The notes under the pieces are model-generated. The model ran no database searches. It was not told the DNA's origin and saw only the letters and a list, made by a program, of their open reading frames with translations. From Squalus acanthias (taxonomy: Eukaryota), in NCBI GenBank assembly GCA_030390025.1, contig CM059431.1:120716001-120780000 (forward strand): a stretch of 64,000 nt of DNA, given 5' to 3'. Shown here piece by piece: positions 3,258-64,000 of the stretch (positions within the stretch are counted from its first letter, which is position 1; each line of letters opens with the position of its first letter). The position numbers and the translations under genes were made by a program.

Positions 3258-4503
3258 GCTCCCGACCTCATTACAGCCTTGGTCCAAACATGGACAAAGG
3301 AGCTGAATTCCAGAGGTGAGTTGAGAGTGACTGCCCTTGACATCAAGGCAGCATTGGACCGAGTGTGGCATCAAGGAGCCCGAGTAAAACTGAAATCAAT
3401 GGGAATCGGGTGGGGGAAATGCTCCACTGGCTGGAGTCATACCTAGCACAAAGAAAGATGGTTGTGGTGGTTGAAAGGCAATCATCACAGCCCCAGGACA
3501 TTGCTGCAGGAGTTCCTCAGGGCAGTGTCCTATGCCCAACCACCTTCAGCTGCTTCATCAATGACCTTCCCTCCAACATAAGGTCAGAAATTGGGATGTT
3601 CGCTCATGACTGCACAGCATTCAGTGCCATTCGCAACTCCTCAGATAATGAAGCAGTCCATGCCCGCATGCAACAAGACCTGGACGACGTTCAGGCTTGG
3701 GCTGATAAGTGGTAGGTAACATTCGCACCACAGAAGTGCCAGGCAATGACTATCTCCAACAAGCGAGAGTCTAACCACCTCTTCATGACATTCAACGGCA
3801 TTACCATCGCCGAATCCCCCACCATCAACATTCTGGGGGTCATCATTGACCAGAAACTTAACTGGACCTGCCACATAAATACTGTGGCAAAAAAGCAGGT
3901 CAGAGGCTAGGTATTCTGTGGTGAGTGTCTAACCTCCTGACTCCTCAAAGCCTTTCCACCATCTACAAGGCACAAGTAAGGAGTGTGGTGGAATACTCTC
4001 CACTTGCCTGGATGAGTGCAGCTCCAACAACACTCAAGAAGCTCGACACCATCCAGGACAAAGCAGCCCATTTGATTGGCACCCCATCCACCACCTTAAA
4101 CATTCACTCCCATCCACCACCGGTGTTCTGTGGGTGCAGTGTGTACCATCTACAAGATGCACTGCAGAAACTCGTCAAGGCTTCTTCGGCAGCACCTTCC
4201 AAACCCATGACCTCTTCCACCTAGAAGGACAAGGGCAGCAGGCGCATGGGAACACCACCACCTCCAAGTTCCCCTCCAAGTCACACACCATCCTGAGTTA
4301 GAAGTATTTTGCCGATCCTTCATCGTCGCTGGGTCAAAATCCTGGAACTCCCTACCTAACAGCACAGTGGGAGTACCTTCACCACAGACTGCAGCAGTTC
4401 AAGAAGGCGGCTCACCACCACCTTCTCAAGGGCAATTAGGGATGGGCAATAAATGCTGACCTTGCCAGCGACGCCCACATCCCATAAACGAATTAAAAAA
4501 AAA
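3258..4503 (+). mobile_element. CR1/L2-group LINE, 3' part (degenerate RT plus 3' tail)
   Basis: GVPQGSVLCPTTFSCFINDL and FAHD (FADD-like) RT motifs with stops and frameshifts; tail ...GCCAGCGACGCCCACATCCC followed by an A-run. Confidence 0.85.
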
Positions 4504-5307
4504 CATAGGTAACATCTCGCAGTTTGCCTTCCATCACTCCATCCGAGAGGTCACAGATGCTCTCTGCAGTAGGAAAAGGGATTACATTTCCTTCCCCATC
4601 ACCAGAGAGAAGCAGGACGAGCATGCATGTGGTTTTGTCAGGATAGCAGGATTCCCCATGGTGCAGGGCGCCATTGACTGCACCCACGTGGCTTTGCGGG
4701 CACCGCATAACAATCCTGAGATCTTCCATAACCGCAAATGCTACTACTCACTTAATGTGCAGTTGGTGTGCGACCACAGACAGTGAATCCTCAATGTGAA
4801 TACTTGCTATCCTAGCAGCAGCCACGATGCCTTCGTCCTGCACCAGACCGGTGTTCCAGCACTCTTCTGGCCATCACGTTAAGCTCGCTCTCCACCTGGC
4901 TCATGACTCCCCTCCGCAAACCCAACACTCCTGCCCAGCACTCATATGCCACCACCAGGAACATCGTTGAGCAGACCATCAGGGTGCTTAAGCAATGGTT
5001 CCGCTGCCTTGACCAGACAGGAGGGGCCTTCCGGTACGCGCCAGAGCGGGTGTCCCATTTCGTCATGGTGTGCTGCATGCTGCACAATCGGGCCATCATG
5101 AGGGCCCAGCCCTTGCTAGCAGGGATTGTGGGACCACCTCAGGAGGAGGAGGAGGGAGAGGAGCAGGAGGAGGACGAGGACGACGAGGAAGATGAGGAGG
5201 AAGAGAAGGAGGAGGAGGAAGAACAGGAGCGAGGGAGGAGGCAGCCACTCAATCGGCCTTCCAGAGGGGCGGTCCGTGGCCACCTCATCAGACTGCGGTT
5301 CCGATAA
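4504..5307 (+). pseudogene. Harbinger (HARBI1-like) DDE transposase fragment
   Basis: GFPMVQGAIDCTHV, NRKCYYSLNVQLVCD, WLMTP, TRNIVEQTIRVLKQWFRCL and CCMLHN motifs, then an acidic tail; disrupted. Confidence 0.88.
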
Positions 5308-5468
5308 ATTAAACCTCACATCCCCGTTGCTCACCACATCCCCATGATTCCATCCCTGTCGCACGCCATATCACAGCACACAGCTGAAATGAGCGATAGT
5401 ACAAAATTATCCAAAGTGAATTAATAAATTTATCAGTAATCAGTGAACACATCTTTACAACAACAATA

Positions 5469-7350
5469 TTACCTATTCACCCTGTGCAATCCCTTAGTGC
5501 CTCGCATTACTGTGCCTTTGCCTACTCTAGTGCTCCTACAAAGTGTTGGCCCACTGGCAGCAGCAGGGCTGGTGGAAGGCTGCTGAGTGTCCGTGCGGGA
5601 GACTTCAGAAGACCTTGCAGGACGCCCACAACCAGCTCTGGGCCTGGAAGGCCCGGCTATAGACTGTACCACCTCAGCATGGGCGGCAGCAGTCTGGGCT
5701 GGCTGGATGACAGGCAGCGACAAGGGCAATGGCGGAGTGGCAGCGGTGGGAGCAGGAATGCTATCATCCTGAGAGAGGACAGCAAGTTCCTGCTGCACTG
5801 ACCCACTGCCACTCCCCTGGAGCAGCACCTCAGCATCCCTAGCAATCTGTTGCAGCACAGATTGCTGGCCTGCTGCGACACTGTGAAAGCCCCGCTCGAC
5901 GGTGGTAGACCCAACTATGATAGCAGCAGTCAGAGCTTGCATGGCCTCAAGCTGAGACTGCATGAGAGCAGTCTGAGATTGGATAGCACCAACCATAGAC
6001 TGCATTACAGCACTAAGACGTTGCATCGCTTCCGCCTGTGCTGCAATGGAAGCTGCCAGATCGCCCATCACATGCAGCATCACGACTGAGTCACAACGGT
6101 CTCTCTGGGAGTCCACCATCCTTTCCAGACTGGAAATGATTGGCTCCATGGTGTACACAGAGCTTTGTTCAATGTTGGAGGCGGACTCCTCCACGCTCCT
6201 TAGCATTGCCGAGAGGCTCTCGGGCAACCCTTGCCATTGCACCTATAATCGTGTGCTTGCCCATCACCATTCTTCTAAAGGCCTCCCCATCGAAGTCAAC
6301 ATCTGAGTCCTGTGCAGCAGCAGAATACGTCCAAACTCGCCCTCCAGGGAGCTGGCCCCCGAGCTACCCTTTCCCCCTGGCCTTGCTGTAGCCCGTTTGT
6401 CCCCGGTGCATCACCCTGTGCAGATCCCCCTACTATACTAGCCTCTAAAGAACGTGTAGTGCCAGTATCTGAGCTGGTGCCTGTGGGTGAAACATGCAGT
6501 GACACGGTGTGTTCTTCCTCCTCCTCTTCTCCCGCCTCACTTTCTACGGTGCCCTCAGGGACAGGCTGCTCAGGTTCTGAAAGCATAAAGGCACAAGTGT
6601 CGGGTTAAGGTGAGGGGAGGGGGGCAGGAAGGGAGAAATGCATTCATACAGCATGATTAGCTGGAAAGTGCGAAATGCTTGTGGGGTGAGGGGGAAGTGC
6701 GATGTGAGAAGAAGGAGTAGGGATAAACATACCATTGTTGTCCCCAAGAGGGTCAACGTTGCCAGTGGCCACGGTGGCCACCACCTGGCACCCAATAATC
6801 TGCAGCACTCTATTTTCCAGCACAGACAGTGGTTGGGTGTCAGCTTGTCCCCCGCCTGTGCGCTCCTGCCTGCAAGAGAAAGGAAAGTGTGTGAGTGAGT
6901 GTGGAGCAATGTGTTTGGGTGATGTGCCTGCCATAGTCGAATAGCTGTCATTGTGTGCAAGGTGTGAGATGTGGGTGTGAGTGTTGGTAGGTGGAGATTG
7001 TTGGTGGGTGAGTGCTGGGGGGTGTGGTGCTTTGGGCAATGTGTGCAGACTATGGTTCAGATGGTGGTATGTAGCATTTGTTGAGCCATTGACTCACCCT
7101 AACCACCCGAGTGAGGTCGATAAATTTCTTCCTGCACTCTGTGTGGGTCCTGGGGACCACAGTGCTGCCCGAGACCTGATGGGCTACTTCCCTCCACAGA
7201 AGATTGTGGCGAGGGCCTCCTGCCACTTGCCGGGTACAGCACCGCCCTCCGTCTCTCCACAGCGGACACCAACTCCTCCAATGCTTGGTCCAAAAATCTG
7301 CGAGCTCTCTCCCTGGGGTGATCTGCCAGGAGTACAGCTGGTTGAGTCGT
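5469..7350 (-). pseudogene. Harbinger Myb/SANT-like DNA-binding partner gene, multi-exon, degenerate
   Basis: RERARRFLDQALEELVSAVERRRAVLYP and LWREVAHQVSGSTVVPRTHTECRKKFIDL (MSANTD-like); coiled-coil 3' exon at 5469-6242. Confidence 0.78.
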
Positions 7351-7688
7351 CTGGCTCCTTGGACTTGGCCTGCTCTTGCTTGCTGACACAGGTTCACAGG
7401 CAGCAATGCTGAGAATGAGATTCTGCAGCATGATTGAACCTCCCCTTTAAGAACTGGAAAGAGCCTGTGGCAATGATGACTTGTGATTAGCCTGCACCTG
7501 ATATTGGTTAGCGATTTGAGTGTAACGCCACTGAGCTAGGCCTTTCGCGCTTGATTTAGCGCGCCCATCCTTTCTTTGAGCGATGACACTGAATTTTGCG
7601 TGCAGTGAGATTCATTAGCGCCTGGTGCTAAATCTCAAACTTTTCCAAAGTTAGCGCCCACTCCTGGGCTATAATGAATTTCTCCCCC

Positions 7689-8385
7689 ATTTTTCTAGGA
7701 AGCTGTCTCGAATGCATTCCATGAGCTCGTCCTCCAAGCTACTTTTGCCTATTTGGTTTGCCCAGTCTTTATGAAGATTAATGTCCCCCACGATTATTGC
7801 ATTGCCCTTGTTACATGCTCTTCTAATTTCCTTATTTATTCTCTGTCCAATGCTAAAACTACTGTTAGGGGACCTATAAACTACTCCCACCAGTGTTTTC
7901 TGCCCCTTGTTATACTGATTCTACATCCTGATGTTCTGGACTAAGATCCTTTCTCACTACTGTCTTTATCTCTTCCTTTATTATTATTGCTACCCCCACC
8001 GCCCCCTCCCTTTTCCTTTTTGCCTATCTTTTCTAAAAGTCAAATAACCTGGAATATTTAGTTCTCAACCTTGGTCACCCTGCAAGCATGTCACTGTAAT
8101 GGCTATTAGATCAAACCCATTTATATCTATTGTTATGAATGCTTCGTGCATTTAGATAGTGCCTTTAATTTTAACTTCTTACTATTTTTCCTTATGTGTT
8201 CTTAGTTGTTGATGCCCTATTTCCATTTATAAACTCTCTCCATTACTGACACATTCTGCTTGATTTGACCTAAATCTCTACTCTGCTCTACAGACTTGAC
8301 TTTTCTCTTTAGTTTTATAACTTTGCCCTTACCTGAACACTCCCTTCCCTGTATTAGTTTAAAGTCCTATCCACCGCCCTAGTTA
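7689..8385 (-). mobile_element. CR1 LINE fragment (endonuclease region)
   Basis: GVVYRSPNSS...IIVGDINL..DW APE-type motifs. Confidence 0.75.
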
Positions 8386-15349: not shown

Positions 15350-17160
15350 AAGAAACATAGAAACATAGAAAAATAGGAGCAGGAGTAGGTCATTTGACCC
15401 TTCGAGCCTGCTCCGCCATTCAATATGATCATGGCTAATCCTCTATCTCAATACCATATTCCCACTCTCTCCCCATACCCCTTGGTGCCTTTTGTGTCTA
15501 GAAATCTATCTATCTCCTACTTAAATATATTCAGTGACTTGGCCTCCACAGACTTCTGTGGTAGAGAATTCCACAGGTTCACCACCCTCTGAGTGAAGAA
15601 ATTTCTCCTCATCTCAGTCCTAAATGTCCTACCCCGTATCCTGAGACTGTGACCCCTCGTTCTAGACCCCCCAGCCAGGGGAAACATCCTCCCTGCATCC
15701 AGTCTGTCTAGCCCTGTCAGAATTTTATATGTTTCAATGAGATCCCCTCTCAATCTTCTAAACTCTAGTGAATACAGGCCTAGTCGACCCAATCTCTCCT
15801 CATATGACAGTCCTGCCATCCCAGGAATCAGTCTGGTGAACCTTCGCTGCACTCCCTCTATGGCAAGTATATCCCTTCTTAGGTAAGGAGACCAAAACTG
15901 CACACAGTACTCCAGGTGTGGTCTCACCAAGGCCCTGTACAACTGTAGTAAGACATCCTTGCTCCCGTACTCAAATCCTCTTGCAATGAAGGCCAACATA
16001 CCATTTGCCTTCCTAACTGCTTGTTGCATCTGCATGTTTGCTTTCAGTGACTGGTGTACAAGGACACCCAGGTCCCTCTGTACATCAACATTTCCCAATC
16101 TATCACCATTTAAATAATACGCTGCCTTTCTGTTTTTCCTACCGAAGTGGGTAACTTCACATTTATCCACGTTATACTGCATCTGCCATGTATTTGCCCA
16201 CTCACTCAACTTGTCTAAATCGCCTTGAAGCCTCTTTGCATCCTCCTCACAACTCACAATCCCACCTAGTTTTGTGTCATCAGCAAACTTGGAAATATTA
16301 CATTTGGTTCCCTCATCCAAATCATTGATATATATTGTGAATAGCTGGGGCCCAAGCACTGTTCCCTACGGTACCCCACTAGTCACCGCCTGCCACCCCA
16401 AAAAAGACCCATTTATTCCTACTCTCTGTTTCCTGTCTGTTAACCAATTTTCAATCCATGCCAGTATATTACCCCCAATCCCATGTGCTTTAATTTTGCA
16501 CACCAACCTCTTATGTGGGACTTTATCAAAGGCCTTCTGAAAATCCAAATACACCATATCCACTGGTTCTCCTTTATCTATTCTACTGGTTACATCCTCA
16601 AAAAACTCCAGTAGGTTTGTCAAACACGATTTCCCTTTCATAAATTCATGTTGACTTTGTTTAATCCCATTGATATTTTGTTATCACATCCTTTATAATA
16701 GACTCTAGCATTTTCCCTACTACTGATGTTGGGCTAACTGGTCTGTCGTTCCCTGTTTTCTCTCTCCCTCCTTTTTTTAAATAGTGGGGTTACATTTGCC
16801 ACCCTCCAATCTGCAGGAACTGTTCCATAATCTATAGAATTTTGGAAGATGACAACCAATGCATCCACTATTTCCATGGCTACCTCTTGTAGTACTCTGG
16901 GATGCAGATTATCAGGCCCTGGGGATTTATCGGCTTTCAGTCCCATTAATTTCTCCAGCACTATTTTTTTACTAATCCTAATTTCCTTTATTTCCTCCTC
17001 CTCACTAGACCCTTGGTTCCCTCGCACTTCTGGGAAATTATTTGTGTCCTCTTCCGTGAAGACAGAACCAAAGTATTTGTTTAATTGCTCTGCCATTTCC
17101 TTGTTCCCCATTATAAATTCTCCCGTTTCTGACTGTAATTCTCCTGTTTCTGACTGTAAG
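15350..17160 (-). mobile_element. CR1 LINE, 5'-truncated, RT domain with frameshifts
   Basis: KSPGPDNLHPRVL, YLDFQKAFDKVPH, SGVP, GPQLF, KFADDTKL and RPHLEYC motifs; short tandem-repeat tail at ~15350-15370. Confidence 0.93.
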
Positions 17161-51339: not shown

Positions 51340-51680
51340 GCAGCAATAACCTGTATTTATGTAGCAAATTTAACTTTAGAATACGTACTCAAGGTGCTGC
51401 ACCAGAGCATGATCAGACAAAAATTGAGAGAGCCAAAGAAGAAAATATTTTAATATTAATATTAAATATTAAAAGAAGTGACTCAAAATTAGGTCAAAGA
51501 GGTAGGTTTTAATGAGGGCTTTGAAGGGGGAGAAAGAGGTGGAGACAGAAAGATTTAGAGAGGGAATTCCAGAGTTTAGGGCCTAGATGGCTGAAGTCAC
51601 GGTCAGGAATGGTGGAGCAAAAGGAAGTGGGGCTTACATCACAGGCCAGAGTTGGAGGAACGCAGATGTCTTAGAGGATT
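51340..51680 (-). mobile_element. L2 LINE 3' part (left flank of the provirus)
   Basis: L2-type tail; sequence continues across the GATT TSD into 61171 onward. Confidence 0.65.
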
Positions 51681-53382
51681 TGTAGAATTCGCAATATATC
51701 ACGATTTTATTAATAAGGAGAAGAACACATAGTTTCGTTCAAACAGCTTTTATTTCAGCAGAATGCTGTCAGGTTTTCAAAGTGGACACAAGCAGCTTGT
51801 AAAATGGCCGCCACGCCTCGTGGCAGAACATTCTAGACTTTTCGACAGGCAGACAAGATGGCGTTCCAATAAACATTTGTGCAAGATCGATCAAGACTCA
51901 GCACATTTAAGATAATACACGAGACATCATGGGTTTACAGTATACACATAAATACTGAAATCGGTCTCCCAGGTGCGAATAAGGGCTATTGTACCAAGTA
52001 ATCAAGAACCCATCCAAAGACATTAATATGTAAAATCCCAACGACTCTACGATGAGAGAGCCGTTAGCGGGTAGTTACAGAAAACATTTGGAAGCCCCAA
52101 AACCCCTCCAGGGAGAACACCGACCGATTAAACAATGGGAAAAGTATTAACAGGTACTCAGACAGTTACGAGTATCCCCGAAACCCATTAAAACGAAGAT
52201 CACCCTATACAAGAAATTTGAGCGCCAAACCCTAACAAAAGAAAAGACATTAAGGTTGGGCGGGAAAAGGGAGGATTTTGCACTATAACTGCAAGCTCCA
52301 ACCGTCCATCTTTCTCTTATCCTCTTATTCGGTTGACGTTTATCCTCGTGGCTGCTCCTGTTGCTCTTATCCTTTCGACTCCTTGCCGCCTGCCTCGTGT
52401 CTCTGCCTCTTGCAGCTTTTAAAGACTGTTGAACTTTACGATCCGCTCGGATCTACCTCGTGGCGTGCCGCGAAGATCTGTGTGGAACTGGGCTCTGAAG
52501 CCTTGAAGCGGGCGCACCATCCCGAGAAGTCGGTAAACGGTGTTGGAACCGAAGGCCCGAGATGAGATGAGATGAGATGAGATGAGAAGAGAAGAAGACC
52601 ATACGTATCGCCACGGTCAGTAAGCTCCGACCGCGCCTGTAGGTCGAATAGACACTTTCCTTGCCAGGAAGACTTCTTCGAATTTTACAGAACTGCCAGG
52701 AAGACTATTCTTCGAATTTTATCGTATCCGTGCGAGGGCACAGGAAGACTCTTCTTTGAGCAGTGTCGGAACTCCGAGGACAACACAGATCTTCATGACA
52801 GCAGACGTTCCAGCCTGCTAGCCGGAGCAGAAACGAGTAAACAAGTGGGGTACAGAGACCCCTGATCGACACGTGGGTGCTGCGGTGAAAAACATCTGAT
52901 CAGAGTTTTCGGAATTCTCCGAGTTATCACGAGTGGTGAGCATGAGTCTCGATCCTACAAATCTAGCTTAGGGCAGATATTGATAGGGGAGGGTTTAAGT
53001 TTTAAGGATAATTGTAATGTGTGCCCCCATTTACGATGTGTCGTTCGTTCCTCGTTTCCCTGAAATTAGTTACATAACTGCGTGTAAGATTATACTGTCA
53101 TTAATCTGTGCTTATGACATGTATTTCGTAATCTTAAATAATATGCAATAAAGATTTTCCATTTCGTACCATTCAACCGAGTCTACCTGAGTTTTATCTC
53201 CATTACTGCTCTCGCATCTAAGTCCAGTGTCAGAACCGTAAGGGCGAGTGGGTCGAACCACTCACAGGTGTCTAGTGCTCCCAGACTGGCTGGAGACCAG
53301 AACAGGCAACAAGGCCTAAACCCGCACTAGCATCCAGGCTGCACAGAGCCACACGAATCTCACAGGTTCAGAAACCCTTACA
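51681..53382 (+). repeat. 5' LTR (1702 bp)
   Basis: TGTA...TACA termini; direct repeat of 59469-61170. Confidence 0.97.
52258..52288 (+). promoter_or_regulatory. Putative LTR core promoter (GC box plus TATA-like element)
   Basis: GGGCGG at 52258-52263 and TATAA at 52284-52288, conserved in all three LTRs; YY1-like AAAATGGCCGCC (51801) and CAAGATGGCG (51854) upstream. Confidence 0.5.
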
Positions 53383-53386
53383 GAAA

Positions 53387-55193
53387 ATGGCGACCGCGGC
53401 AGGACGCTGGCAGCGAGAGGGTAATGTGTTAGACTTTGGTATGAATGTACGAAATGTCATGCAAGAGAAAATAGCAGATTATGTGTTCGAAAAAGTAAAT
53501 TTGACTAAGAAATGGATAAGTGACCTGTTAGCGGATAAGAGTCCACTAGAGGCAGCCGAGAGGTGGACAGATAGTAAGGAACATAAAAAGACAGTCGAGA
53601 AAGCGGTCTGGTTAATGTGTTATAAAAGGCAGGTCCAGATTTCAAACCAGGTCATTACAGCGCAAACAGCTCGGATCAGGCATTTAGAGGAGGAAATGGA
53701 CGAGAAGGTCACTGGGGGGGGAGTTGCTCATTAGGAATTTAAGTGCGTTGCACCGAGAACGCCAGGAAATCACCAGTCACCATAAAGCAAAAATAGATTA
53801 CCTCAAGTGCCAGGTCACTGAGGCAAAGTTAAGTGAGGGCAGACTAAAGGAACGATGTGCCCGCCAAGCTGCCCAAATAAAAGCCCAGGAAGAGAGCTTA
53901 ACGGGGGTTAGGGCGGCATTTAAGATGGCCCTTGAGGATAAGTTTCAGGGGGCCGATCATAGCATTTGCCAAAAGGAGATAGAGCACCTTAAAAGGGCCG
54001 TGAACAAAGCGCACGGCATAGTGTGCCTTATCAGTCCGTCAGCACACCAGCCACTAGTAGATGAGGAGTTTCAGAAATTCCCACCCAATAAAGCAAAGGA
54101 AGTATTAGCCACTACGCCCTCCGCGCCACCCAGCTATTCGGAAACCTGGGTAAGGGAGGAAGTAGTAGAAGAAACGAAAGAGCCCACTGAGGGAGAAGTG
54201 GAAAAGGGACCGTTGTGTCCGGTTACGGGTATAAAAAGGGGCCCAAACAGAAACGGTGGGGAACAAGGAGATCTCCTCAACCAGCTTGTGTTGCCTCACA
54301 GCTCACACCAGCTGAGGGTTATGATAAGTCACGTACGGAAGCTGACCGAGGCAGACGACCCTTCCGTACATTTCAGGGAAGTTGAGCAAACCGCAGCCAT
54401 TAACGGCTGCGACGATGGGGAAACAGCAAAGATGCTGTTATTTTCATTAGGTAGTTCGATCCTTCAGTGTCTCTCGGACGAGAGCAAGAGAGGAACCAAA
54501 AAATATGAGGCACTAAAAAATGAGGTCCTAGAAGTATTGGGGACGGACGATGAAGGTCCGTTTGTTAGAGTGGGACAGACAGTGCAGATGGAGGGAGAAC
54601 CCCCGAAGGTTTTCGCCGACAGGCTGTGGCCAGTATACCAGCGCAGCTGCCCAGGTGCGCCAGAGCGCGACGATGTGGAAGGCGTCGGTTTAGCTCATTG
54701 GCTCAGGTGTATAGTAGCCAACAGTTTGCCAGCCGTCAGAGAGCAGGCAAAAGCGTGGTTTGATCCCACTGACCCCAACATTACGGAGGAGTCGGTCTTA
54801 AATCGACTCACGGTAGGATACCGCAATATAAGGGGTATGGGAACACGTCCCCTTAAAGGAAAAGTACATGAGGTACGACCCGCAGCCCCGGCTCAAAAGG
54901 AGTGGCATCAGGAGGGTAACCGCGCCCCGCAGGCAAGTAATGCTTATTACGGGTGTGGGAGGACAGGGCACTGGCGCAAGAACTGCAGGAACCCTTGGAA
55001 GGATTCCAGGGATAAAAATCCCGCAGCCCGAGCCCAGATGCCTGTCTCTGTTAGGGAAGCTAGTGCACCCACCCCTCCCGACGACCTCGAAACAGTGTTG
55101 GGAGCCATGCGCAACTTCATGAGTGCGCATGGAAAAGTGGCGGTTGCTACCGGCCCCGTAGGTGCCACAGGCCCGTCTAACAATACCCAATGA
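53387..55193 (+). CDS. gag: Gag-like polyprotein (~600 aa if one G is removed from the G8 run at 53714-53721)
   Basis: ORFs 53387-53734 and 53724-55193 join on a 1-nt deletion; N-terminal coiled coil, PSAPPSY late domain, helical capsid-like region, zinc knuckle YYGCGRTGHWRKNC with the first Cys replaced by Tyr. Confidence 0.85.
53388..53405 (+). promoter_or_regulatory. Primer-binding site, tRNA-Arg (TCG/CCG type)
   Basis: TGGCGACCGCGGCAGGAC is the reverse complement of the vertebrate tRNA-Arg 3' end GTCCTGCCGCGGTCGCCA as recalled; it starts 5 nt after the LTR. Confidence 0.88.
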
Positions 55194-56339
55194 CTAGAGC
55201 CCACGCAGCCTGCCTACCTGTGTCCTTTTAAAAGACACGCACAGGAGGGGGTCTCCTGTGAGGAGGCCAGGTTAAAAGAGCAGGCCTTGCGGGAGGAGAA
55301 CGCCCGCTTAATAGGGAAAATAGATGGGCTAGAAGGGCAGCTTAGAGAGCAGGCCCTGCGGGAGGAGAACGCCCGCTTAATGGGAAAGTTAGACGTGCTC
55401 AGGCTAGAAGGGCAGCTTAGAGAAATAAAAGCAGCCTACCAGGTAGCCAGAAGCAGGGATTTAAATCAGTGCAAACTGTACAAGCCAGGTGCACAAGGGA
55501 AAACCACAGGGGCAAACCCTGCGAGTGGGGACTCGCAGCCCCAGGTAGGACCACAGGGCACACAGGCAGGAAGAGCAGCTTGCATCAGGGAAGGAGGCAT
55601 CCTGGAAAATTGTGAAACATTTTTGTGGGGTTGGGAGTCAGATGAGGGAGAGTTCCCGGAACTCGAGTCAGATGAGGATAGTGATGAGGACGAGTGGGAA
55701 TCGGGGAACGCAAGGGTCGCCCCCGATTCAGGTATAGGGAGGACAGGAGCTGCAGATAGAGATCCACACAGGGTGGACACCGAGGCTGCAGGTCCCGAAC
55801 ACAGGAGGGAGGAGCTAGGGGAGGCGGAGCCAGCCGCTGTGGGACCACAGGGCGTGACGGTGAAAACCTCAGAGCCCGAGCCGCCCGCCTTGAACGTCCT
55901 GCCCTCGAGAGAGGTAGGGATTGCGAGTGAAGGGCCGCCTGCTGGGCCGAGCAGGGCGGTGCCACAAGCTGCAAGTCCCGAGGTCAGGGAGGCGGAGTCA
56001 GGGGAGGCGGAGCCAGCGACTGTGGTGGGACCACAGGTCGTCCCGGTGGAAGTCTCGGAACCCGGTCCGTCGGTCCTGGGATTCCTGCCCCCGACAACTC
56101 CTCGTAGGTCAAGTCGAGCACCCCAGCCCAGGAAGATGTGGTCATGTCCCCAGACTGCCCCAAGGCGCAGGCTTAAGGTTAAGGCAGCCCAGGTAGGGCC
56201 CAGTCCCATCGCAGCAGCAACAGGCTGCGGCAGATCAAAGGAAGGGGTCAGTGCAGCAACAGGCTGCGGCAGATCAAAGGAAGGGGTCAGTGCCCTCCCA
56301 CCATCGGGAAGAACTCGCAGCAGCCTTCTCAGAATTTAA
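55194..56339 (+). CDS. ORF-X: in-frame readthrough extension of gag at the pol position, unknown function (~381 aa)
   Basis: No stop between the gag TGA and TAA 56337-56339; starts LEPTQPAYLCPF; no D(T/S)GA, YxDD, HHCC or DDE motifs seen. Confidence 0.75.
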   Translation, partial: LEPTQPAYLCPFKRHAQEGVSCEEARLKEQALREENARLIGKIDGLEGQLREQALREENARLMGKLDVLRLEGQLREIKAAYQVARSRDLNQCKLYKPGAQGKTTGANPASGDSQPQVGPQGTQAGRAACIREGGILENCETFLWGWESDEGEFPELESDEDSDEDEWESGNARVAPDSGIGRTGAADRDPHRVDTEAAGPEHRREELGEAEPAAVGPQGVTVKTSEPEPPALNVLPSREVGIASEGPPAGPSRAVPQAASPEVREAESGEAEPATVVGPQVVPVEVSEPGPSVLGFLPPTTPRRSSRAPQPRKMWSCPQTAPRRRLKVKAAQVGPSPIAAATGCGRSKEGVSAATGCGRSKEGVSALPPSGRTRSSLLRI

Positions 56340-56632
56340 AGGGGCCGCCCTGAGAACGGGCGGCGCTGTACAGTAATAAGTTTAGGATAAGTTTTAAGGT
56401 CATAGTTTAAGTTTACGTTTCTAAGTTTAAGGTTAAGAATAAGGTTAAGAATAAGTTTATAGTTTTAAAATCGGTTTAAGTTTGTAGTTTAATTTTAACA
56501 GAATATGATAAAATGATGGGAGTTTTAGATAGGTTTAGTTAAAGTTTATTCAGCGAACATGGAAGTTTCCGTGAGGCGAGGTCAGGGGACCCGCTCACCC
56601 TTTACAAAAGCCAGAGACTCTTGCGAGGCTGG

Positions 56633-56656
56633 CTAACTCATTCTATCTGATCACAG
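56633..56656 (+). promoter_or_regulatory. Putative env splice acceptor (branch point plus CAG)
   Basis: CTAAC-TCATTCTATCTGAT-CACAG, 13 nt upstream of the env ATG at 56670. Confidence 0.65.
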
Positions 56657-56669
56657 GAACCAAGGAAGG

Positions 56670-59020
56670 ATGGAACGAATTCTAGTATTGCTCGCGGCAA
56701 TCGGATGTGGGTTGGCCTATCGAGGCCGCACCAAGGATGTCGTGGTGTTTGGATGCTCCGGGGACACGGCCCCCATCGCGGTGGATGGGACCGGAAGACG
56801 GGAGGCTGAGGAGACCACCACCTATTTCCACAAGGGAAGGTGGCCAGGATGGCTGGGAACGAACTCAACGGAGTATTCCAGCACATCGGGGTTTGCCTAC
56901 CAAGAGACTTCTTTAATGTGCCCCAAAGTAAGGATCATCGCACCCAGGATCAGCGTCACCGTCGGCAAACGGATTTGTTTGACTTGTAATGGGAATGTCC
57001 CATTGAGCCGATGGTGGTGGCTGCGAAAGCTGAGCAAAAACATGAGGAACTCTTCGGTCGAGTGGGAACGACTGGGTAATAATACCCATCGGACAATTAC
57101 GGGGACAAACGGACAAGTGAGAGTCTGTTGGGACAAATGGTGGGAACCGGATGAGGGAATTTATGTACGCATGTGGGGGTCAAAGTACGCGTGCCCCAAA
57201 GGCATCTCCATATTTTTCATTAATCAATGGCAGGATAACGGACAGGGAATGAGGTGGGATGCGAGCACCAGGGGGTGCGGAGCCCCATACTCTTCGATCC
57301 CGGTAAATGCCACTGAACTCATTACGCGCCCACGCAAAGCCCCGCCCACGATTCCGGTGGTTCTAGCTAAAGAGGAAGGGTGCCCTAAAACCAGTAAGGG
57401 ACCCGGGAATGGTTTGGTACTGGTCCCCACAGACCAGATACTATTTCAGGGGGTACATTACGCGGTGGCCTCGGTGGTTTTAAATCTCACCGAGGTGCGG
57501 TTACCAGAGTGGCGCCCCAAAAAGACGGAACAGTTGTATCAGGTCCTGTTGACCAAGATGTTCAGACAATTTTACGAATTCGATTTCGCGGTAATTGATA
57601 AAACAAGTTTGTACACCGCACCACATGAAGTTTTGGATCAATTAGGGAGGCAAAGAAGGGGTGTAGTGAACGACGCGTTCACTGCTTTTAACACGGGTAC
57701 ATCTGTGGTCAACGCTCTAGATAGTGTGGAGCTGCAGACCCAGATTAATGGTTTAAAGACGCAATTAAAAGACATTCTAACAGATGAAAATAAAGTGGTT
57801 GGGTCGGGTTTACATGAGGACCAAGCCATGACTCTCCATTTAAAGGAAATTATAGCAGAGCTGGAGAAACACGCGAGAACGGTAAATGCCCTGATTAGGG
57901 AAGATCGGAATGCATCCGATCAAGCTGCGCAGAATGAGGTGTGCGTGCTTTACGGGGCGTGGTTACTGGGCGAGGGCCGCAGTAATTTGGAGGATTTAAA
58001 ACAAGGTTTGGTCCCGTCCTGGATAAGTAACAAACACCTGCGGGCGCTCCACCCTTTTCAGAACGCATTAAGCCCGTGCCAGCTCAGGCTAGCTTCAGAA
58101 GCATACCCAGTCCCCGTGGACTGCGGACGATCAAACCATACTATCATGGGTATAGTACTACGTATGCCGGTTTTGGGCGACACAGCAAAGCCCGCCCCGG
58201 TGTATCGGGTAGAGAACATTGGTGTCATTCAGGGGGGAGCCCACATTCGCTATGCAGCGGTTCCACCCTACGTCATCCGCTGGGAGCAAACGATGACAGG
58301 TACAGATCTCTCTGGTTGTCGTGGCAGGGGAGCACACATAATACTGTGTCCCCAGCACTTGAATGCCTTTTTAACACCACAGTGCGGGTTCAGAACGGCT
58401 GGCGCCAAGTCCATGAATTGCACCATGGAGGCAATGGCACAAGATCATGTGCCTCCGCAGGTAGCATACATCGGGGGTGGAACATATTGTGTTACCACTG
58501 CAGCGCAACACTACCAGCATGGAAACCGTAGCCGGTGTCCGGTGAGTGACAGCAGTTTCTGTTTCAAACCCAGGGCGGAAGTTCAAGTAGCACAACAGCG
58601 AATTGTCCCAATCCCTGAACCATCCACTGTTCATCTAACAGTAAAAGAGAATTTCACCGACTTGCAGCGATTCGTCGCGCATTTCGGATACATCATTCCC
58701 CCTCTCCCTGAACACCTCACCAAGCTTTTGAAAGCCATCGCGGTGTCACAAAAACATTTTTACACACTAGAGCAGAAAACTGTCGAAATAGGGACAGACA
58801 TTCTGGATATAGTAATTCCACCGTGGTGGAATCTGTTCACCAATATGAAGTGCCTTCATGGATCAGAATAGCCTCCCACATTTTAGTCGTATGCCAAGTT
58901 TTTATTGTAGTGTACCTATTGGTCGTACATTGTAAGAGAGGCAAACGCCTCACCAAGCACGAAAACACGGGAGAGTGGCGAGAACGTTACGTGCGCGTGC
59001 ACGATGAAAGCACCGTGTAA
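56670..59020 (+). CDS. env: Envelope glycoprotein (class I fusion type), frameshifted near 58846 before the TM anchor
   Basis: Signal peptide MERILVLLAAIGCGLA, Ig-like segment, furin site RQRR at 57648-57659, fusion peptide and heptad repeat; AATATGAA here versus AATATTGAA in copy 1. Confidence 0.9.
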
Positions 59021-59459
59021 TCGTAAAATGGCGTCACTCCCGCTTGCCACCTGCGCCGCGGAAGTGTTGTACTCGACCGTGATTTTTCGAAAACTGTAAA
59101 TACGTTTGGAACTCGACATGTTTTAGGAGTTGGTGTTGATTATTTTGGTGATGGTGTTGTAGTTAAAGATGATTGTTTGGTTTTGTTTTGCTTTTCCTTT
59201 CCCTAAATAAAAATATGAATATACAGGTGATACGAGAGGCATCGGCCTGGTTAAGCCTGGAAGGAAAACAAGTGGTGTAAGTTTAAAGGCAAATAATGCC
59301 GACGGTGCTATAAAATGTAATTTTCTTGGGAAATAAGGACGACACAAAAACCCTAGATAGTTTAAGTTATGGGATTAATTTTCTGGATCTGGAGAAATCA
59401 AGATAATATTGCTCACCACTATACTTTTTGATACGATAAGCGGAGTTATTCGCATCAAC

Positions 59460-59468
59460 AGGAGGGAC
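59460..59468 (+). promoter_or_regulatory. Short polypurine tract
   Basis: AGGAGGGAC directly before the 3' LTR; identical at 1620-1628. Confidence 0.8.
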
Positions 59469-61170
59469 TGTAGAATTCGCAATATATCACGATTTTATTA
59501 ATAAGGAGAAGAACACATAGTTTCGTTCAAACAGCTTTTATTTCAGCAGAATGCTGTCAGGTTTTCAAAGTGGACACAAGCAGCTTGTAAAATGGCCGCC
59601 ACGCCTCGTGGCAGAACATTCTAGACTTTTCGACAGGCAGACAAGATGGCGTTCCAATAAACATTTGTGCAAGATCGATCAAGACTCAGCACATTTAAGA
59701 TAATACACGAGACATCATGGGTTTACAGTATACACATAAATACTGAAATCGGTCTCCCAGGTGCGAATAAGGGCTATTGTACCAAGTAATCAAGAACCCA
59801 TCCAAAGACATTAATATGTAAAATCCCAACGACTCTATGATGAGAGAGCCGTTAGCGGGTAGTTACAGAAAACATTTGGAAGCCCCAAAACCCCTCCAGG
59901 GAGAACACCGACCGATTAAACAATGGGAAAAGTATTAACAGGTACTCAGACAGTTACGAGTATCCCCGAAACCCATTAAAACGAAGATCACCCTATACAA
60001 GAAATTTGAGCGCCAAACCCTAACAAAAGAAAAGACATTAAGGTTGGGCGGGAAAAGGGAGGATTTTGCACTATAACTGCAAGCTCCAACCGTCCATCTT
60101 TCTCTTATCCTCTTATTCGGTTGACGTTTATCCTCGTGGCTGCTCCTGTTGCTCTTATCCTTTCGACTCCTTGCCGCCTGCCTCGTGTCTCTGCCTCTTG
60201 CAGCTTTTAAAGACTGTTGAACTTTACGATCCGCTCGGATCTACCTCGTGGCGTGCCGCGAAGATCTGTGTGGAACTGGGCTCTGAAGCCTTGAAGCGGG
60301 CGCACCATCCCGAGAAGTCGGTAAACGGTGTTGGAACCGAAGGCCCGAGATGAGATGAGATGAGATGAGATGAGAAGAGAAGAAGACCATACGTATCGCC
60401 ACGGTCAGTAAGCTCCGACCGCGCCTGTAGGTCAAATAGACACTTTCCTTGCCAGGAAGACTTCTTCGAATTTTACAGAACTGCCAGGAAGACTATTCTT
60501 CGAATTTTATCGTATCCGTGCGAGGGCACAGGAAGACTCTTCTTTGAGCAGTGTCGGAACTCCGAGGACAACACAGATCTTCATGACAGCAGACGTTCCA
60601 GCCTGCTAGCCGGAGCAGAAACGAGTAAACAAGTGGGGTACAGAGACCCCTGATCGACACGTGGGTGCTGCGGTGAAAAACATCTGATCAGAGTTTTCGG
60701 AATTCTCCGAGTTATCACGAGTGGTGAGCATGAGTCTCGATCCTACAAATCTAGCTTAGGGCAGATATTGATAGGGGAGGGTTTAAGTTTTAAGGATAAT
60801 TGTAATGTGTGCCCCCATTTACGATGTGTCGTTCGTTCCTCGTTTCCCTGAAATTAGTTACATAACTGCGTGTAAGATTATACTGTCATTAATCTGTGCT
60901 TATGACATGTATTTCGTAATCTTAAATAATATGCAATAAAGATTTTCCATTTCGTACCATTCAACCGAGTCTACCTGAGTTTTATCTCCATTACTGCTCT
61001 CGCATCTAAGTCCAGTGTCAGAACCGTAAGGGCGAGTGGGTCGAACCACTCACAGGTGTCTAGTGCTCCCAGACTGGCTGGAGACCAGAACAGGCAACAA
61101 GGCCTAAACCCGCACTAGCATCCAGGCTGCACAGAGCCACACGAATCTCACAGGTTCAGAAACCCTTATA
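59469..61170 (+). repeat. 3' LTR (1702 bp; terminal CA changed to TA)
   Basis: Direct repeat of the 5' LTR with three differences seen by eye. Confidence 0.97.
60935..60940 (+). terminator. LTR polyadenylation signal
   Basis: AATAAA conserved in all three LTRs (3003, 53147, 60935), about 230-250 nt from the LTR end. Confidence 0.65.
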
Positions 61171-62700
61171 GATTTTAGAGCTGGAGGAGGTTAAGATAGG
61201 GAGGGGTGAGGCCATGGAGGGATTTGAACACAAGGATGAGAATTTTTAAATTGACGCAATGCTGGACCGGGAGTTAATGTAGGTCAGTGAGCACAAGGGT
61301 TGATAGGTGAATGGGACTTGTTGCGGGTTAGCATATGGGCAGAAAAGTTTAGGATGAGCTCAAGTTTAAGGAGTGTGGTAGATGGGAGACCAGCCAGGAG
61401 AGTATTAGAATTGGCTGGAGGTAACAAAAGCATTGATGAGGGTTTCATCAGCAGAGCAGTTGAAACAGTGGTGGATGATGGGTGGTGGTATGGAGGCAGA
61501 TGTAGGCGGTCTTTGTGATGAAGAGAATATGGTGTCAGAAGTTCAGCTCAGTGTCAAATAGGACACCGTAGTTGTGAGCAGTCTGAGATAGTGGGATAGT
61601 GCTCCACACGCACAGTCACATAGGCTGTAATTTGTGGCTTTGATTAGCATCGTTCCAATGCTGTGGTAAGAGTGGAAACCTGATTGGAGAGATTCAAACA
61701 TGGAGTTGCAGGAAAGATGGTCATGTATTTGGGAGCTGACAACACATTTGAGGACTTGAGAGAAAAGGGAGTTTGGACATACGGTGACAGAAGGGTCAAG
61801 GGTTTTTTTTGAAGAGGGGAATGCTGATGGCAGATTTGAAAGGGAGGTGACAATAACTGAGGAGAAGGAACCATTTACTAGGTCAGCTAGCACGTGGGGC
61901 CAGGAAGTGAAGTTGGGTGGTCAGCTGTTTAGTGGAAAAAGGGGCGAGAGAGCAGAAGAGGGCATGAGTGGAGATAAGAAAGAAACTAGAGATAGATGCT
62001 AGTTCAGGAATAGGGCAGGGGGGGAATCTTTGGGAAAGCTTGGCTTGGTGGGCACGGGAAAGGGATGGATGAAGCAGAGGCAGTTGAATAGATGGTCTCA
62101 ATTATAGTGGCAAAAAAGTTCATGAGCTCCTCGCATTTGTTGTTGGAGGTGAATGTGGAGGGGGCAGGGGAGAGTGGTTAAAGGAGATGGTTGATAGTGA
62201 AGAGAAGCCAGTGGTTATCTTTGCATTCTAGGCTGATCCTGGAGTAGTGAACATTTCTGGCAGAGGAGAGCAGCACCCAGTGGTGCTTGATGCGATCAAG
62301 CCAGATCTGGCAATGAATGACAAAACCAATGTGCCATATATGTTCAAGTCTGTGCTCCTTAGACGTAAGGGAGCAAAGATGATGGCCGTACCAGGGGGAA
62401 TGACCAGGGTGGGAGAGAGGAAATGTTTCACTGGGATCAAGGGCATCAAAGGTGGAAGTGATGGAGTGATTGAGCAGATCAACACCTGCAGATATATTGT
62501 GAGGAACAGAGGGCTAAAGGCTAGACAATTAGAAGTTTTAAAGAGAGTGGCAAGATTAGCACCCAGCACGTGCTCTGGGTGGAAAGGTCAGCAGGTGAGG
62601 AGGATGGCAGTTGGAGTTGCTGCTCGTAAGGAGGCAGCGACAAGTGCCTCGATGGATAAATGCAAGTCAGAGGACGTCATGACCAAACTGTTCAGTTCTG
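61171..62700 (-). mobile_element. Degenerate L2 LINE (right flank of the provirus)
   Basis: NSMFESLQSGFHSYHS resembles the L2 QSGFR..HSTETAL motif. Confidence 0.7.
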
Positions 62701-63275: not shown

Positions 63276-64000
63276 TCATCCGTGGCTAAGTAAAGAAATT
63301 AAGGATAGTATTCGACTAAAAACAAGGTAGCCAAATCTAGTGGGAGGATAGAGGATTGGGAAAACTTTAAAAGACAGCAAAAAATAACAAAAAGATTGAT
63401 TAAGAAAGGGAGGATAGATTATGAAAGTAAATTAGCAAAAAATATAAAAACAGATAGTAAGAGTTTTTATAGTTATATAAAAAGAAAAAGGGTGGCTAAA
63501 GTAAATGTTGGTCCCTTAGAGGATGAGACCGGGAAATTAATGGTGAGAAATATGGAGATGGCAAAAACACTGAATGAATATTTTGTATCAGTCTTTACAG
63601 TAGAGGACACTAAGAATATCCCAACACTGGACAAACAGGGGGCTATAGGGGGGGAGGAGCTAAACACGATCAAAATCACTAAGGAAGTGGTACTCGGTAA
63701 AATAATGGGACTCAAGGCGGATAAATCACCTGGACCTGATGGCTTACATCCTAGGGTCTTGAGGGAAGTGGCGGTAGGGATTGTGGATGCATTGGTAATA
63801 ATTTTCCAAAACTCCCTGGACTCAGCAAAGATCCCGGCAGACTGGAAAACTGCTAATGTAACACCCTTATTTAAAAAGGGCAGTAGACAGAAAGCTGGAA
63901 ACTATAGACCGGTTAGCCTAACATCTGTGGTAGGTAAAATTTTGGAGTCCATTATTAAGGAGACAGTAACGGGACATTTGGATAATTATAATTTAATAGG
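63276..64000 (+). mobile_element. CR1 LINE ORF2 fragment running off the window
   Basis: YFVSVFT, KSPGPDGLHPRVL, WKTANVTPLFKKG and GNYRPVSLTSVVGK motifs. Confidence 0.9.

Follow-up and report, generated by a model that had tools for sequence, protein, structure and literature searches.

Structure of the provirus

The window analyzed in this study is a stretch of 64,000 nucleotides of Squalus acanthias (GenBank assembly GCA_030390025.1, contig CM059431.1, positions 120,716,001 to 120,780,000 of the forward strand). It contains a young long terminal repeat (LTR) provirus at positions 51681-61170, which carries gag, an open reading frame (ORF) termed ORF-X, and env, and which has no pol. It is one copy of a very abundant pol-less, i.e., non-autonomous, endogenous retrovirus family of a cartilaginous fish. 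The focus is on the junction between gag and ORF-X, a TGA codon behind which the reading frame of gag remains open. The results point to a helper-dependent retrovirus that has lost most of pol and has probably kept the leaky gag stop of its ancestry.

For comparisons across copies, 29 sibling copies (3.6 kb each), 40 copies of the first 277 nt of ORF-X and four further copies of its 3' part, the tail, were used; one of the 40 (L091) was left out because it was misaligned.

The provirus is flanked by a target-site duplication, GATT, recognized from the flanking letters (51677-51680 and 61171-61174, plus strand). The 5' LTR of 1702 bp, which starts with TG and ends with CA, was delimited with an identity profile at an offset of 7788 (51681-53382, plus strand), and the 3' LTR by its identity to the 5' LTR (59469-61170, plus strand). 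The two LTRs have three mismatches in 1702 positions (52050, 52646 and 53381). The gag gene follows immediately. Its N-terminal part is an ORF of 115 amino acids (53387-53734, plus strand), which in the window copy has a different frame than the remaining gag. The main part (53727-55193, plus strand) encodes a coiled coil, PSAP/PPSY motifs, a capsid-like region and a CCHC knuckle with a weak match to the zf-CCHC profile, and it ends with the TGA codon at 55191-55193. The split is located at a G-run at about 53714-53722, where the window copy has a one-base length difference to all 29 siblings, which read gag as a single frame. Only 5 nt separate the LTR from the start codon of gag, which overlaps with the putative primer-binding site TGGCGACCGCGGCAGG... 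(53383-53410), and any splice donor for the env mRNA must therefore be within the LTR or within gag.

ORF-X continues the gag frame from 55194 to the stop codon at 56337-56339 (plus strand) and comprises 381 codons. It is followed by a non-coding spacer, which is rich in insertions and deletions (indels) among the copies (56340-56669, plus strand), and by an env-like ORF of 733 codons with a signal peptide, an RQRR cleavage site and heptad regions (56670-58871, plus strand). The window copy has a frame shift near 58846, as judged against one sibling and one helper copy, so that the membrane anchor and the tail of Env (to about 59017) are in another frame. Relatives of Env among public proteins stem from a skate and a sawshark. 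With regard to protease, reverse transcriptase (RT), RNase H and integrase (IN), no Pfam RT or IN domain match was obtained in any ORF of the window. The one-base differences in gag and env of this young copy are situated in short homopolymer or dinucleotide runs, and they could be assembly errors.

The stop codon of gag and its context

The junction consists of CAA (55188-55190), TGA (55191-55193) and CTAG (55194-55197), and is listed here as an inherited gag/pro stop-readthrough site of type II, UGA-CUA (55188-55197, plus strand), on the basis of the copies, the helper lineages and the literature. The initial annotation of this DNA had noted CAA-TGA-CTAG together with an open downstream gag frame, and this was confirmed, the open frame extending over 381 codons up to the stop at 56337-56339. 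It was also right in that 31 sense codons (55194-55286) precede a TTG at 55287 and that the first in-frame ATG is at 55380.

The proposal that UGA-CUAG is a strong readthrough context is in agreement with the parts of the literature that were available, in which it is documented as a high-readthrough context (PMC4359377, PMC13517186). UGA-CUA(G) is the consensus of high basal readthrough in human genes (PMC4359377), and the hexanucleotide UGACUA fits the type II definition of Beier and Grimm, i.e., UGACUA or UGACGG (PMC13517186). Readthrough at the type II motif UGA-CUA has been demonstrated experimentally in alphaviruses and in a triatovirus (PMC13517186). The retroviral sites given in the available part of that 2026 review on animal viruses are UAG-GGA, UAG-GAU, UGA-AGA, UGA-CGA and UGA-AGU; UGA-CUA is absent from them, in a literature search that was not exhaustive (PMC13517186).

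ORF-X is a remnant of pol by homology

A word-indexed protein search with ORF-X as query yielded no match, but low-complexity words probably swamped this search. When 1.84 billion representatives were searched exhaustively with phmmer, there was a single match, P0004 (E 2e-25). The first 45 residues of P0004 are a typical integrase end, and the remainder aligns with ORF-X from residue 90 onwards. When P0004 was used as query against the shark's own genome, 147 matches were found, many of which are located at the C-terminus of open frames that comprise 1437 or 1496 codons. These frames belong to autonomous relatives of the window family, i.e., to potential helpers.

A representative of the first type is L063. 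Its gag ends with ...SSQ, followed by TGA (4004-4006) and, in the same frame, by a Pol of 1437 codons (4007-8320), which begins with LKPAQPVYLCPLRYD...DTGA and ends with ...HINQCKLYKPGAQG...SLFRI, before env. The domains of this Pol are DTGA, RVT_1, RT_RNaseH_2, RNase_H, Integrase_H2C2 and rve. In the second type (L086, L088 and L089), gag and the 1496-codon Pol are again in one frame and parted by a single stop, the junction being ACC-CAA-TGA-CTA-GAG, followed by LEPAQPVYLCPL. The 1496-codon type is closer to the window copy than the 1437-codon type.

The comparison with the helpers revealed three parts of ORF-X. Residues 1-13 match residues 1-13 of the helper Pol (8/13), and residues 90-381 match residues 1217-1437 of the 1437-amino-acid helper (E 1e-47). 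At the DNA level, blastn homology between the window and the helper extends to 55225 and resumes at 55464. The first part is a protease (pro) remnant of 10-11 codons, LEPTQPAYLCP (55194-55225, plus strand). As suggested initially, LEPTQPAYLCPF is a leftover start of pro; the corresponding helper sequences are LKPAQPVYLCPL and LEPAQPVYLCPL, behind which the DTGA motif of the protease follows, and alignment with the helper gag/pro junction shows homology across the junction as far as 55225. The second part is an insert of 238 nt or 79 codons without a helper homologue (55226-55463, plus strand), which replaces about 3.6 kb encoding pro, RT, RNase H and IN. The third part is the C-terminal, post-integrase tail of pol, from ..NQCKLYKPG to ..SLLRI* (55464-56339, plus strand). 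In total, 3,619 nt of the helper are replaced by 238 nt, and as both numbers leave a remainder of 1 on division by 3, the reading frame is preserved.

These homologies show that ORF-X is an internally deleted pol, with about 11 protease codons, the insert of 79 codons and a post-integrase tail of about 290 codons, and that protease, RT, RNase H and integrase have been lost. The initial view of ORF-X as a non-Pol protein had therefore to be abandoned, because residues 90-381 are the Pol C-terminal tail and the insert alone is new. The window region 55464-56406 has 77% nucleotide identity to the tail of the 1496-codon type, including an internal duplication that they have in common. The duplication in the pol tail is 183-186 nt long, and the tail additionally contains a 39-nt tandem unit. 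The latter codes for AATGCGRSKEGVS (window 56214-56291) and is present in one, two or three tandem copies in the elements that were compared (L130-L133). The acidic part of the tail has a hypervariable length among elements.

The insert contains in-frame tandem units of 69 and 75 nt, and a 27-mer from it has 996 matches in the genome. AlphaFold predicted residues 22-95 of ORF-X, essentially the insert, as one long helix, with predicted local distance difference test (pLDDT) values of 89-98 for roughly residues 21-80, and modelled the tail as disordered. The prediction of a helix dimer with two copies of residues 12-100 had a score of 0.31, compared to the mark of 0.32, and speaks neither for nor against a dimer. 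With respect to the source of the insert, blastn and tblastx against the helper loci and the window gave nothing significant (best tblastx E 0.022), and a resemblance to the integrase C-terminal region, EGQLREIK/EGQLQEVK, was not significant either (E 3.1). A structural variant was also observed (L102 and L134, C1:165264755-165265400), in which the in-frame joint between insert and pol is located about 210 nt further upstream in pol. The variant retains about 70 more integrase codons, including the C-terminal SH3-like part of the integrase, and is a possible intermediate in a stepwise loss of pol.

Conservation of the junction

The context CAA-TGA-CTAG was present in 30/30 copies that were examined first, a sample that is biased by its selection for similarity to the junction stretch. 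A junction 26-mer with a free stop codon had 1,911 matches in the genome. Among the first 100 matches listed of these 1,911 non-autonomous junctions, the stop was TGA in 98 cases, TAA in one case and AGA in one case. A helper-type junction word had 1,266 matches, and among the first 100 listed there were 99 TGA and one AGA, followed by CTAG in 92 and by CTAA in eight cases. In fetched copies, TGA-CTA was found in 21/22 junctions of the 1437-type (TGA-CGA in the remaining one) and TGA-CTAG in 3/3 junctions of the 1496-type. CAA-TGA-CTA(G/A) between gag and pol has thus been kept by two diverged autonomous lineages. Conservation is highest for the stop and the approximately 25 nt around it, in a region that otherwise has 72-86% identity between the lineages.

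The stop and its context are therefore retained in diverged copies and lineages, well beyond what chance would give, as a comparison of copies proposed at the outset had been meant to reveal. Because the autonomous relatives part gag and pol of the same frame by this stop alone, the junction is of the readthrough type that had been postulated, and TGA-CTAG is the lineage's own, inherited gag/pro readthrough site.

RNA structure downstream of the stop

Some readthrough sites depend on a downstream RNA structure. Two possible stem-loops had been noted initially, and their arms are indeed present, GTGTC (55220-55224) with GACAC (55234-55238) and CCTGTG (55217-55222) with CACAGG (55240-55245). Statistical support for their folding was not obtained. 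The folding of the 103 nt from 55188 to 55290 is ordinary (z = -1.57), and among 200 dinucleotide shuffles, 19 folded equally well. A stronger hairpin of 8 bp is formed by CACAGGAG (55240-55247) and CTCCTGTG (55253-55260); the hairpin at 55240-55260 was found again by a scan for bacterial promoters and terminators, a scan type otherwise irrelevant here. For a stretch of 140 nt in the window, z was -2.7 with mononucleotide shuffles.

Selection on gag, env and ORF-X

Nonsynonymous (N) and synonymous (S) variants were counted when they were present in at least two copies. In gag, 66 N and 68 S variants were found, compared to an expectation of 90.8 and 40.1, and in the 5' part of env 3 N and 14 S variants, compared to 10 and 6. 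Both genes are under purifying selection. For ORF-X the result was different. In the tail, 54 N and 20 S variants were found (expected 49 and 24), and in the insert 31 N and 19 S variants (expected 34 and 15), both of which are neutral ratios. Within the family, the pairwise ratio of nonsynonymous to synonymous rates (omega) of the tail was 0.73-1.27, and the synonymous divergence (dS) between sub-lineages was up to 0.32. The amino acids of ORF-X drift almost neutrally, with an omega of about 0.9.

These values bear on the proposal with which the analysis started, namely that ORF-X is a captured or newly evolved non-Pol protein, whose fusion to Gag is deliberate and takes the place of Gag-Pol in packaging. 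No relative of the insert was detected in the helpers or in protein databases, and the insert is predicted to be one long helix; both findings speak for the proposal. However, three quarters of ORF-X are pol tail and the amino acids of the insert are not under purifying selection, and the proposal is regarded as highly improbable.

The constraint on the helper Pol was not uniform. The helper integrase is strongly constrained (29 N and 84 S shared variants), whereas the helper pol tail is only weakly constrained (88 N and 38 S variants, compared to 82 and 40 expected). In a part of the pol tail of the autonomous family, the ..PRRSDRTPQPRKLW.. block (8108-8227 of L063), an excess of shared nonsynonymous variants was seen, i.e., 27 compared to five synonymous ones, with an expectation of 20.5 and 10.4. 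This block may be under diversifying selection.

The frame of ORF-X seems to be maintained, in contrast to its amino acids. New in-frame stops were absent from the tail, although 11.7 were expected in 34 copies, and also from the insert, although 4.9 were expected in 69 copies, which gives none compared to about 16.6 for both parts together. Off-frame stops in the tail were close to or above expectation (19 versus 16.4 and 11 versus 11.8), and the same was true for the gag off-frames and for all frames of the non-coding spacer (22 versus 14.9). The off-frames of the insert likewise agreed with expectation, with one versus 3.3 and two versus 3.0 new stops, and gag in its own frame had three versus 8.8. 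The stop triplets of the insert are distributed over the three frames as 0/10/4, so that all 14 are off-frame. Four tails that were chosen by the 26-mer alone have 85-143 substitutions in the 873 nt relative to the window, besides several indels, and all of them are open; one of these stretches (L131) ends before the stop. Indels that are shared among copies are multiples of three. Apparent shared stop variants at 55378 and 55669 were rejected, as they are two-base codon changes and not stops.

The alternative that has to be weighed most carefully is that ORF-X is a neutral vestige, which is open because the family is young, the sequence is rich in G+C and the tail is repeatedly refreshed by recombination with helpers whose pol is under selection, and that any Gag-deltaPol fusion is an irrelevant by-product. 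This is the less probable explanation. The neutral N/S ratios of insert and tail, the range of omega and the weak constraint on the helper tail are in line with it. The lack of new stops in the ORF-X frame is not, given that the off-frames of ORF-X and gag and the spacer accumulated them as expected or in excess. In addition, the insert has no homologue in the helpers and could not be refreshed by recombination, yet it is free of new stops and carries all its stop triplets off-frame. The restriction of shared indels to multiples of three and the fact that both breakpoint variants are in frame also argue against a mere vestige.

A second alternative is that ORF-X, or its part from the ATG at 55380, is an accessory protein that is translated from a spliced subgenomic mRNA or by internal initiation, and not by readthrough. 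The ATG is present in 66/69 copies, the deficit of stops is mostly downstream of it (none compared to about 7.7 expected, and more with the further tails), and a pyrimidine-rich stretch followed by AG was seen by eye at 55209-55244. Nevertheless, the conservation of this ATG does not exceed the overall identity of about 96%, and its context is weak, with a T at -3 as read by eye. GT..AG joints were not seen in short contigs of uncertain kind from four public sequencing runs, a material that could not have revealed them. Moreover, the frame upstream of the ATG is open in 65 of the 69 copies (the other four, L017, L025, L116 and L119, carry a stop) and, being the ancestral pol frame, begins directly behind the stop of gag. 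An accessory protein is therefore an improbable explanation.

Distribution of the family and further elements in the window

In public sequencing runs the LTR had a depth 10 to 100 times that of the interior, and in the runs of one organism env was several times deeper than gag and ORF-X, contig depth being a poor measure in both cases. The excess depth of LTR and env may indicate that solo LTRs are numerous and that LTR and env are shared by other elements. Words from the junction or the insert were found at regular spacing at a few sites, about 7.7 kb at C661 (about 55.5-71.6 kb) and at C1 (143.658-143.673 Mb), and about 6.4 kb, six in a row, at C3 (64.286-64.318 Mb). This suggests that tandem LTR-interior-LTR arrays exist beside dispersed insertions. 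Apart from the provirus, the window contains a fragment of an RVT_1-type reverse transcriptase (15520-16359, minus strand, E 8e-7) and an open frame at 63396-63998 (plus strand), which by eye resembles a LINE reverse transcriptase and had no Pfam match at E <= 0.001.

Interpretation

The results are best explained by a pol-deleted, helper-dependent retrovirus that keeps the ancestral leaky stop of gag, is expected to produce a minor Gag-deltaPol fusion, and has kept the leftover frame open. On the present sequence comparisons this reading is held with good, though not full, confidence. In the UGA-CUA context, ribosomes would misread the leaky UGA, probably in a few per cent of cases, and would continue into the pol remnant, and the readthrough product would be Gag-deltaPol. 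Because the deleted pol remnant is located behind an inherited leaky stop, it is likely that this fusion is made. For the initial proposal that it would be made and packaged in place of Gag-Pol, indirect support is limited to the absence of stops from the frame. Reverse transcriptase and integrase for copying would be supplied in trans by the autonomous relatives. That the leftover frame is not simply decaying is a weaker inference, drawn from the freedom from stops and frameshifts in multiplying lineages. As the amino acids are neutral and the frame is without stops, it seems to be translation through the remnant, or a long disordered tail of any sequence, that matters.

Several points weigh against this reading. 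The tail of L132 is nearer to the 1496-type helper (dS 0.18) than to L130 (dS 0.32), and frameshifting one-base indels are about equally frequent in ORF-X and in gag of the 29 siblings; both observations also speak for the neutral vestige. The position of L132 suggests recombination with helpers, and tail variants that have been filtered in helpers may inflate the number of stops expected for the tail. Some of the one-base indels may be assembly errors. The deficit of stops in the insert alone is modest (p about 0.007), and upstream of the ATG at 55380 the stop test is powerless (none versus 2.3 expected). Similarity to the junction was the criterion for the 29 siblings and the exact 26-mer that for the 40 additional copies, so that the conservation of 55185-55210 was forced; low variation at 55194-55225 among the 69 copies was discarded as evidence for the same reason. 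A significant downstream fold was found neither in the window nor in the helpers (helper z = +0.47 and -1.43). Finally, the N/S ratio of ORF-X is neutral, and therefore any protein function would have to be independent of the sequence.

Two functions of this kind can be envisaged for a pol-deleted retrovirus with a leaky gag stop, and they are put forward tentatively, with a rather low probability. Either the pol remnant is a selected "ribosome runway", or the fusion of Gag with helix and disordered tail is a structural part for packaging by the helper. In the case of a runway, it would be relevant that the gag stop precedes more than 4 kb of RNA in the pol-less genome. Occasional readthrough ribosomes would sweep the downstream RNA and would thereby shield the genomic RNA from nonsense-mediated decay. 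Such a protection by readthrough elements has been described for reporters of the murine leukaemia virus (MLV) type (PMC10141005, in the part available, citing Hogg and Goff 2010). Either function would explain why a frame with an omega of about 1 is kept open.

What had appeared to be Gag fused to an unknown protein has thus become a pol-deleted retrovirus that still has its ancestral readthrough site. It adds a cartilaginous-fish retroviral lineage with a UGA-CUA(G) gag/pol junction, a motif that in the available parts of the literature belongs otherwise to alphaviruses and to cellular readthrough genes. With about 1,900 junctions of the non-autonomous and 1,300 of the helper type, there is a natural test set for the question whether the context alone drives retroviral readthrough. 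The same set bears on the question why a parasite of a parasite retains gag, env and a frame that is open but free in its sequence. If the frame were indeed selected merely for being translated, a genome would here provide an example of RNA protection that depends on translation.

Comparison with known systems

The shark lineage resembles gamma- and epsilonretroviruses (MoMLV, WDSV) and the fish and frog viruses SSSV, ZFERV and RMEV, in which gag and pro-pol are likewise in one frame with a single stop. The stop also has the same position as in these viruses, between the zinc knuckle and the DTGA motif and at a short distance from the latter. As in the shark, the stop of ZFERV, SSSV and RMEV is UGA, according to the available part of the review (PMC13517186). 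There are three differences. First, the hexanucleotide of the shark lineage is the type II UGA-CUA, which is none of the retroviral motifs listed in that part of the review. Second, MLV has a pseudoknot about 8 nt past the stop, whereas no MLV-like pseudoknot or significant fold was found here. Third, the downstream frame of the window copy does not encode the enzymes.

The stop and the next 3-4 nt are identical to those of alphaviruses, of the Plautia stali intestine virus and of the human genes AQP4, SYTL2, LDHB and MDH1, as far as these are covered in the accessible parts of the sources (PMC4359377, PMC13517186). In these cases the type II motif leads to short peptide extensions of cellular proteins or to an RNA-virus polymerase. 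Here, in contrast, it is located at a gag/pol junction, which in the window is followed by a gutted pol.

The life style is similar to that of BHIKHARI (Bik-1, Bik-2), zebrafish lokiretroviruses that, in the available part of their description, were recently active, have an intact gag under selection, lack RT and IN, and depend on a partner, as is the case here (PMC12067270). The hosts of lokiretroviruses given in the accessible part of PMC7947760 include no cartilaginous fish. The Gag of BHIKHARI has an N-terminal coiled coil, as does the Gag of the shark family. In contrast to BHIKHARI, which keeps gag alone, the shark family has in addition retained env, on which purifying selection acts, and, past the leaky stop, a pol remnant that is still open, and its autonomous partners are abundant in the same genome. 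A trait of lokiretroviruses is the likeness of Env to the paramyxovirus F protein. The shark Env gave no PF00523 match at E <= 1, which is a failure of sensitivity and not proof of a difference. A search of PDB sequences gave a chance match alone (E 3.2), an Atlas search gave no usable match, and an AlphaFold2 model from an alignment of five sequences was unusable (pLDDT 28). The large Env subunit that remains after cleavage is compatible with an F-like protein.

Defective retroviruses with a helper, e.g., the acutely transforming viruses with their Gag-Onc fusions, form a product linked to Gag and obtain the enzymes from the helper. They are similar to the shark family in that they are replication-defective, have part of pol replaced and depend on a helper. 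They differ in that the fused part is a host gene, whereas in the shark family it is mostly the element's own pol tail. In addition, the fusion of the shark family requires readthrough of the stop, and the family is present with about 1,900 copies in the germline.

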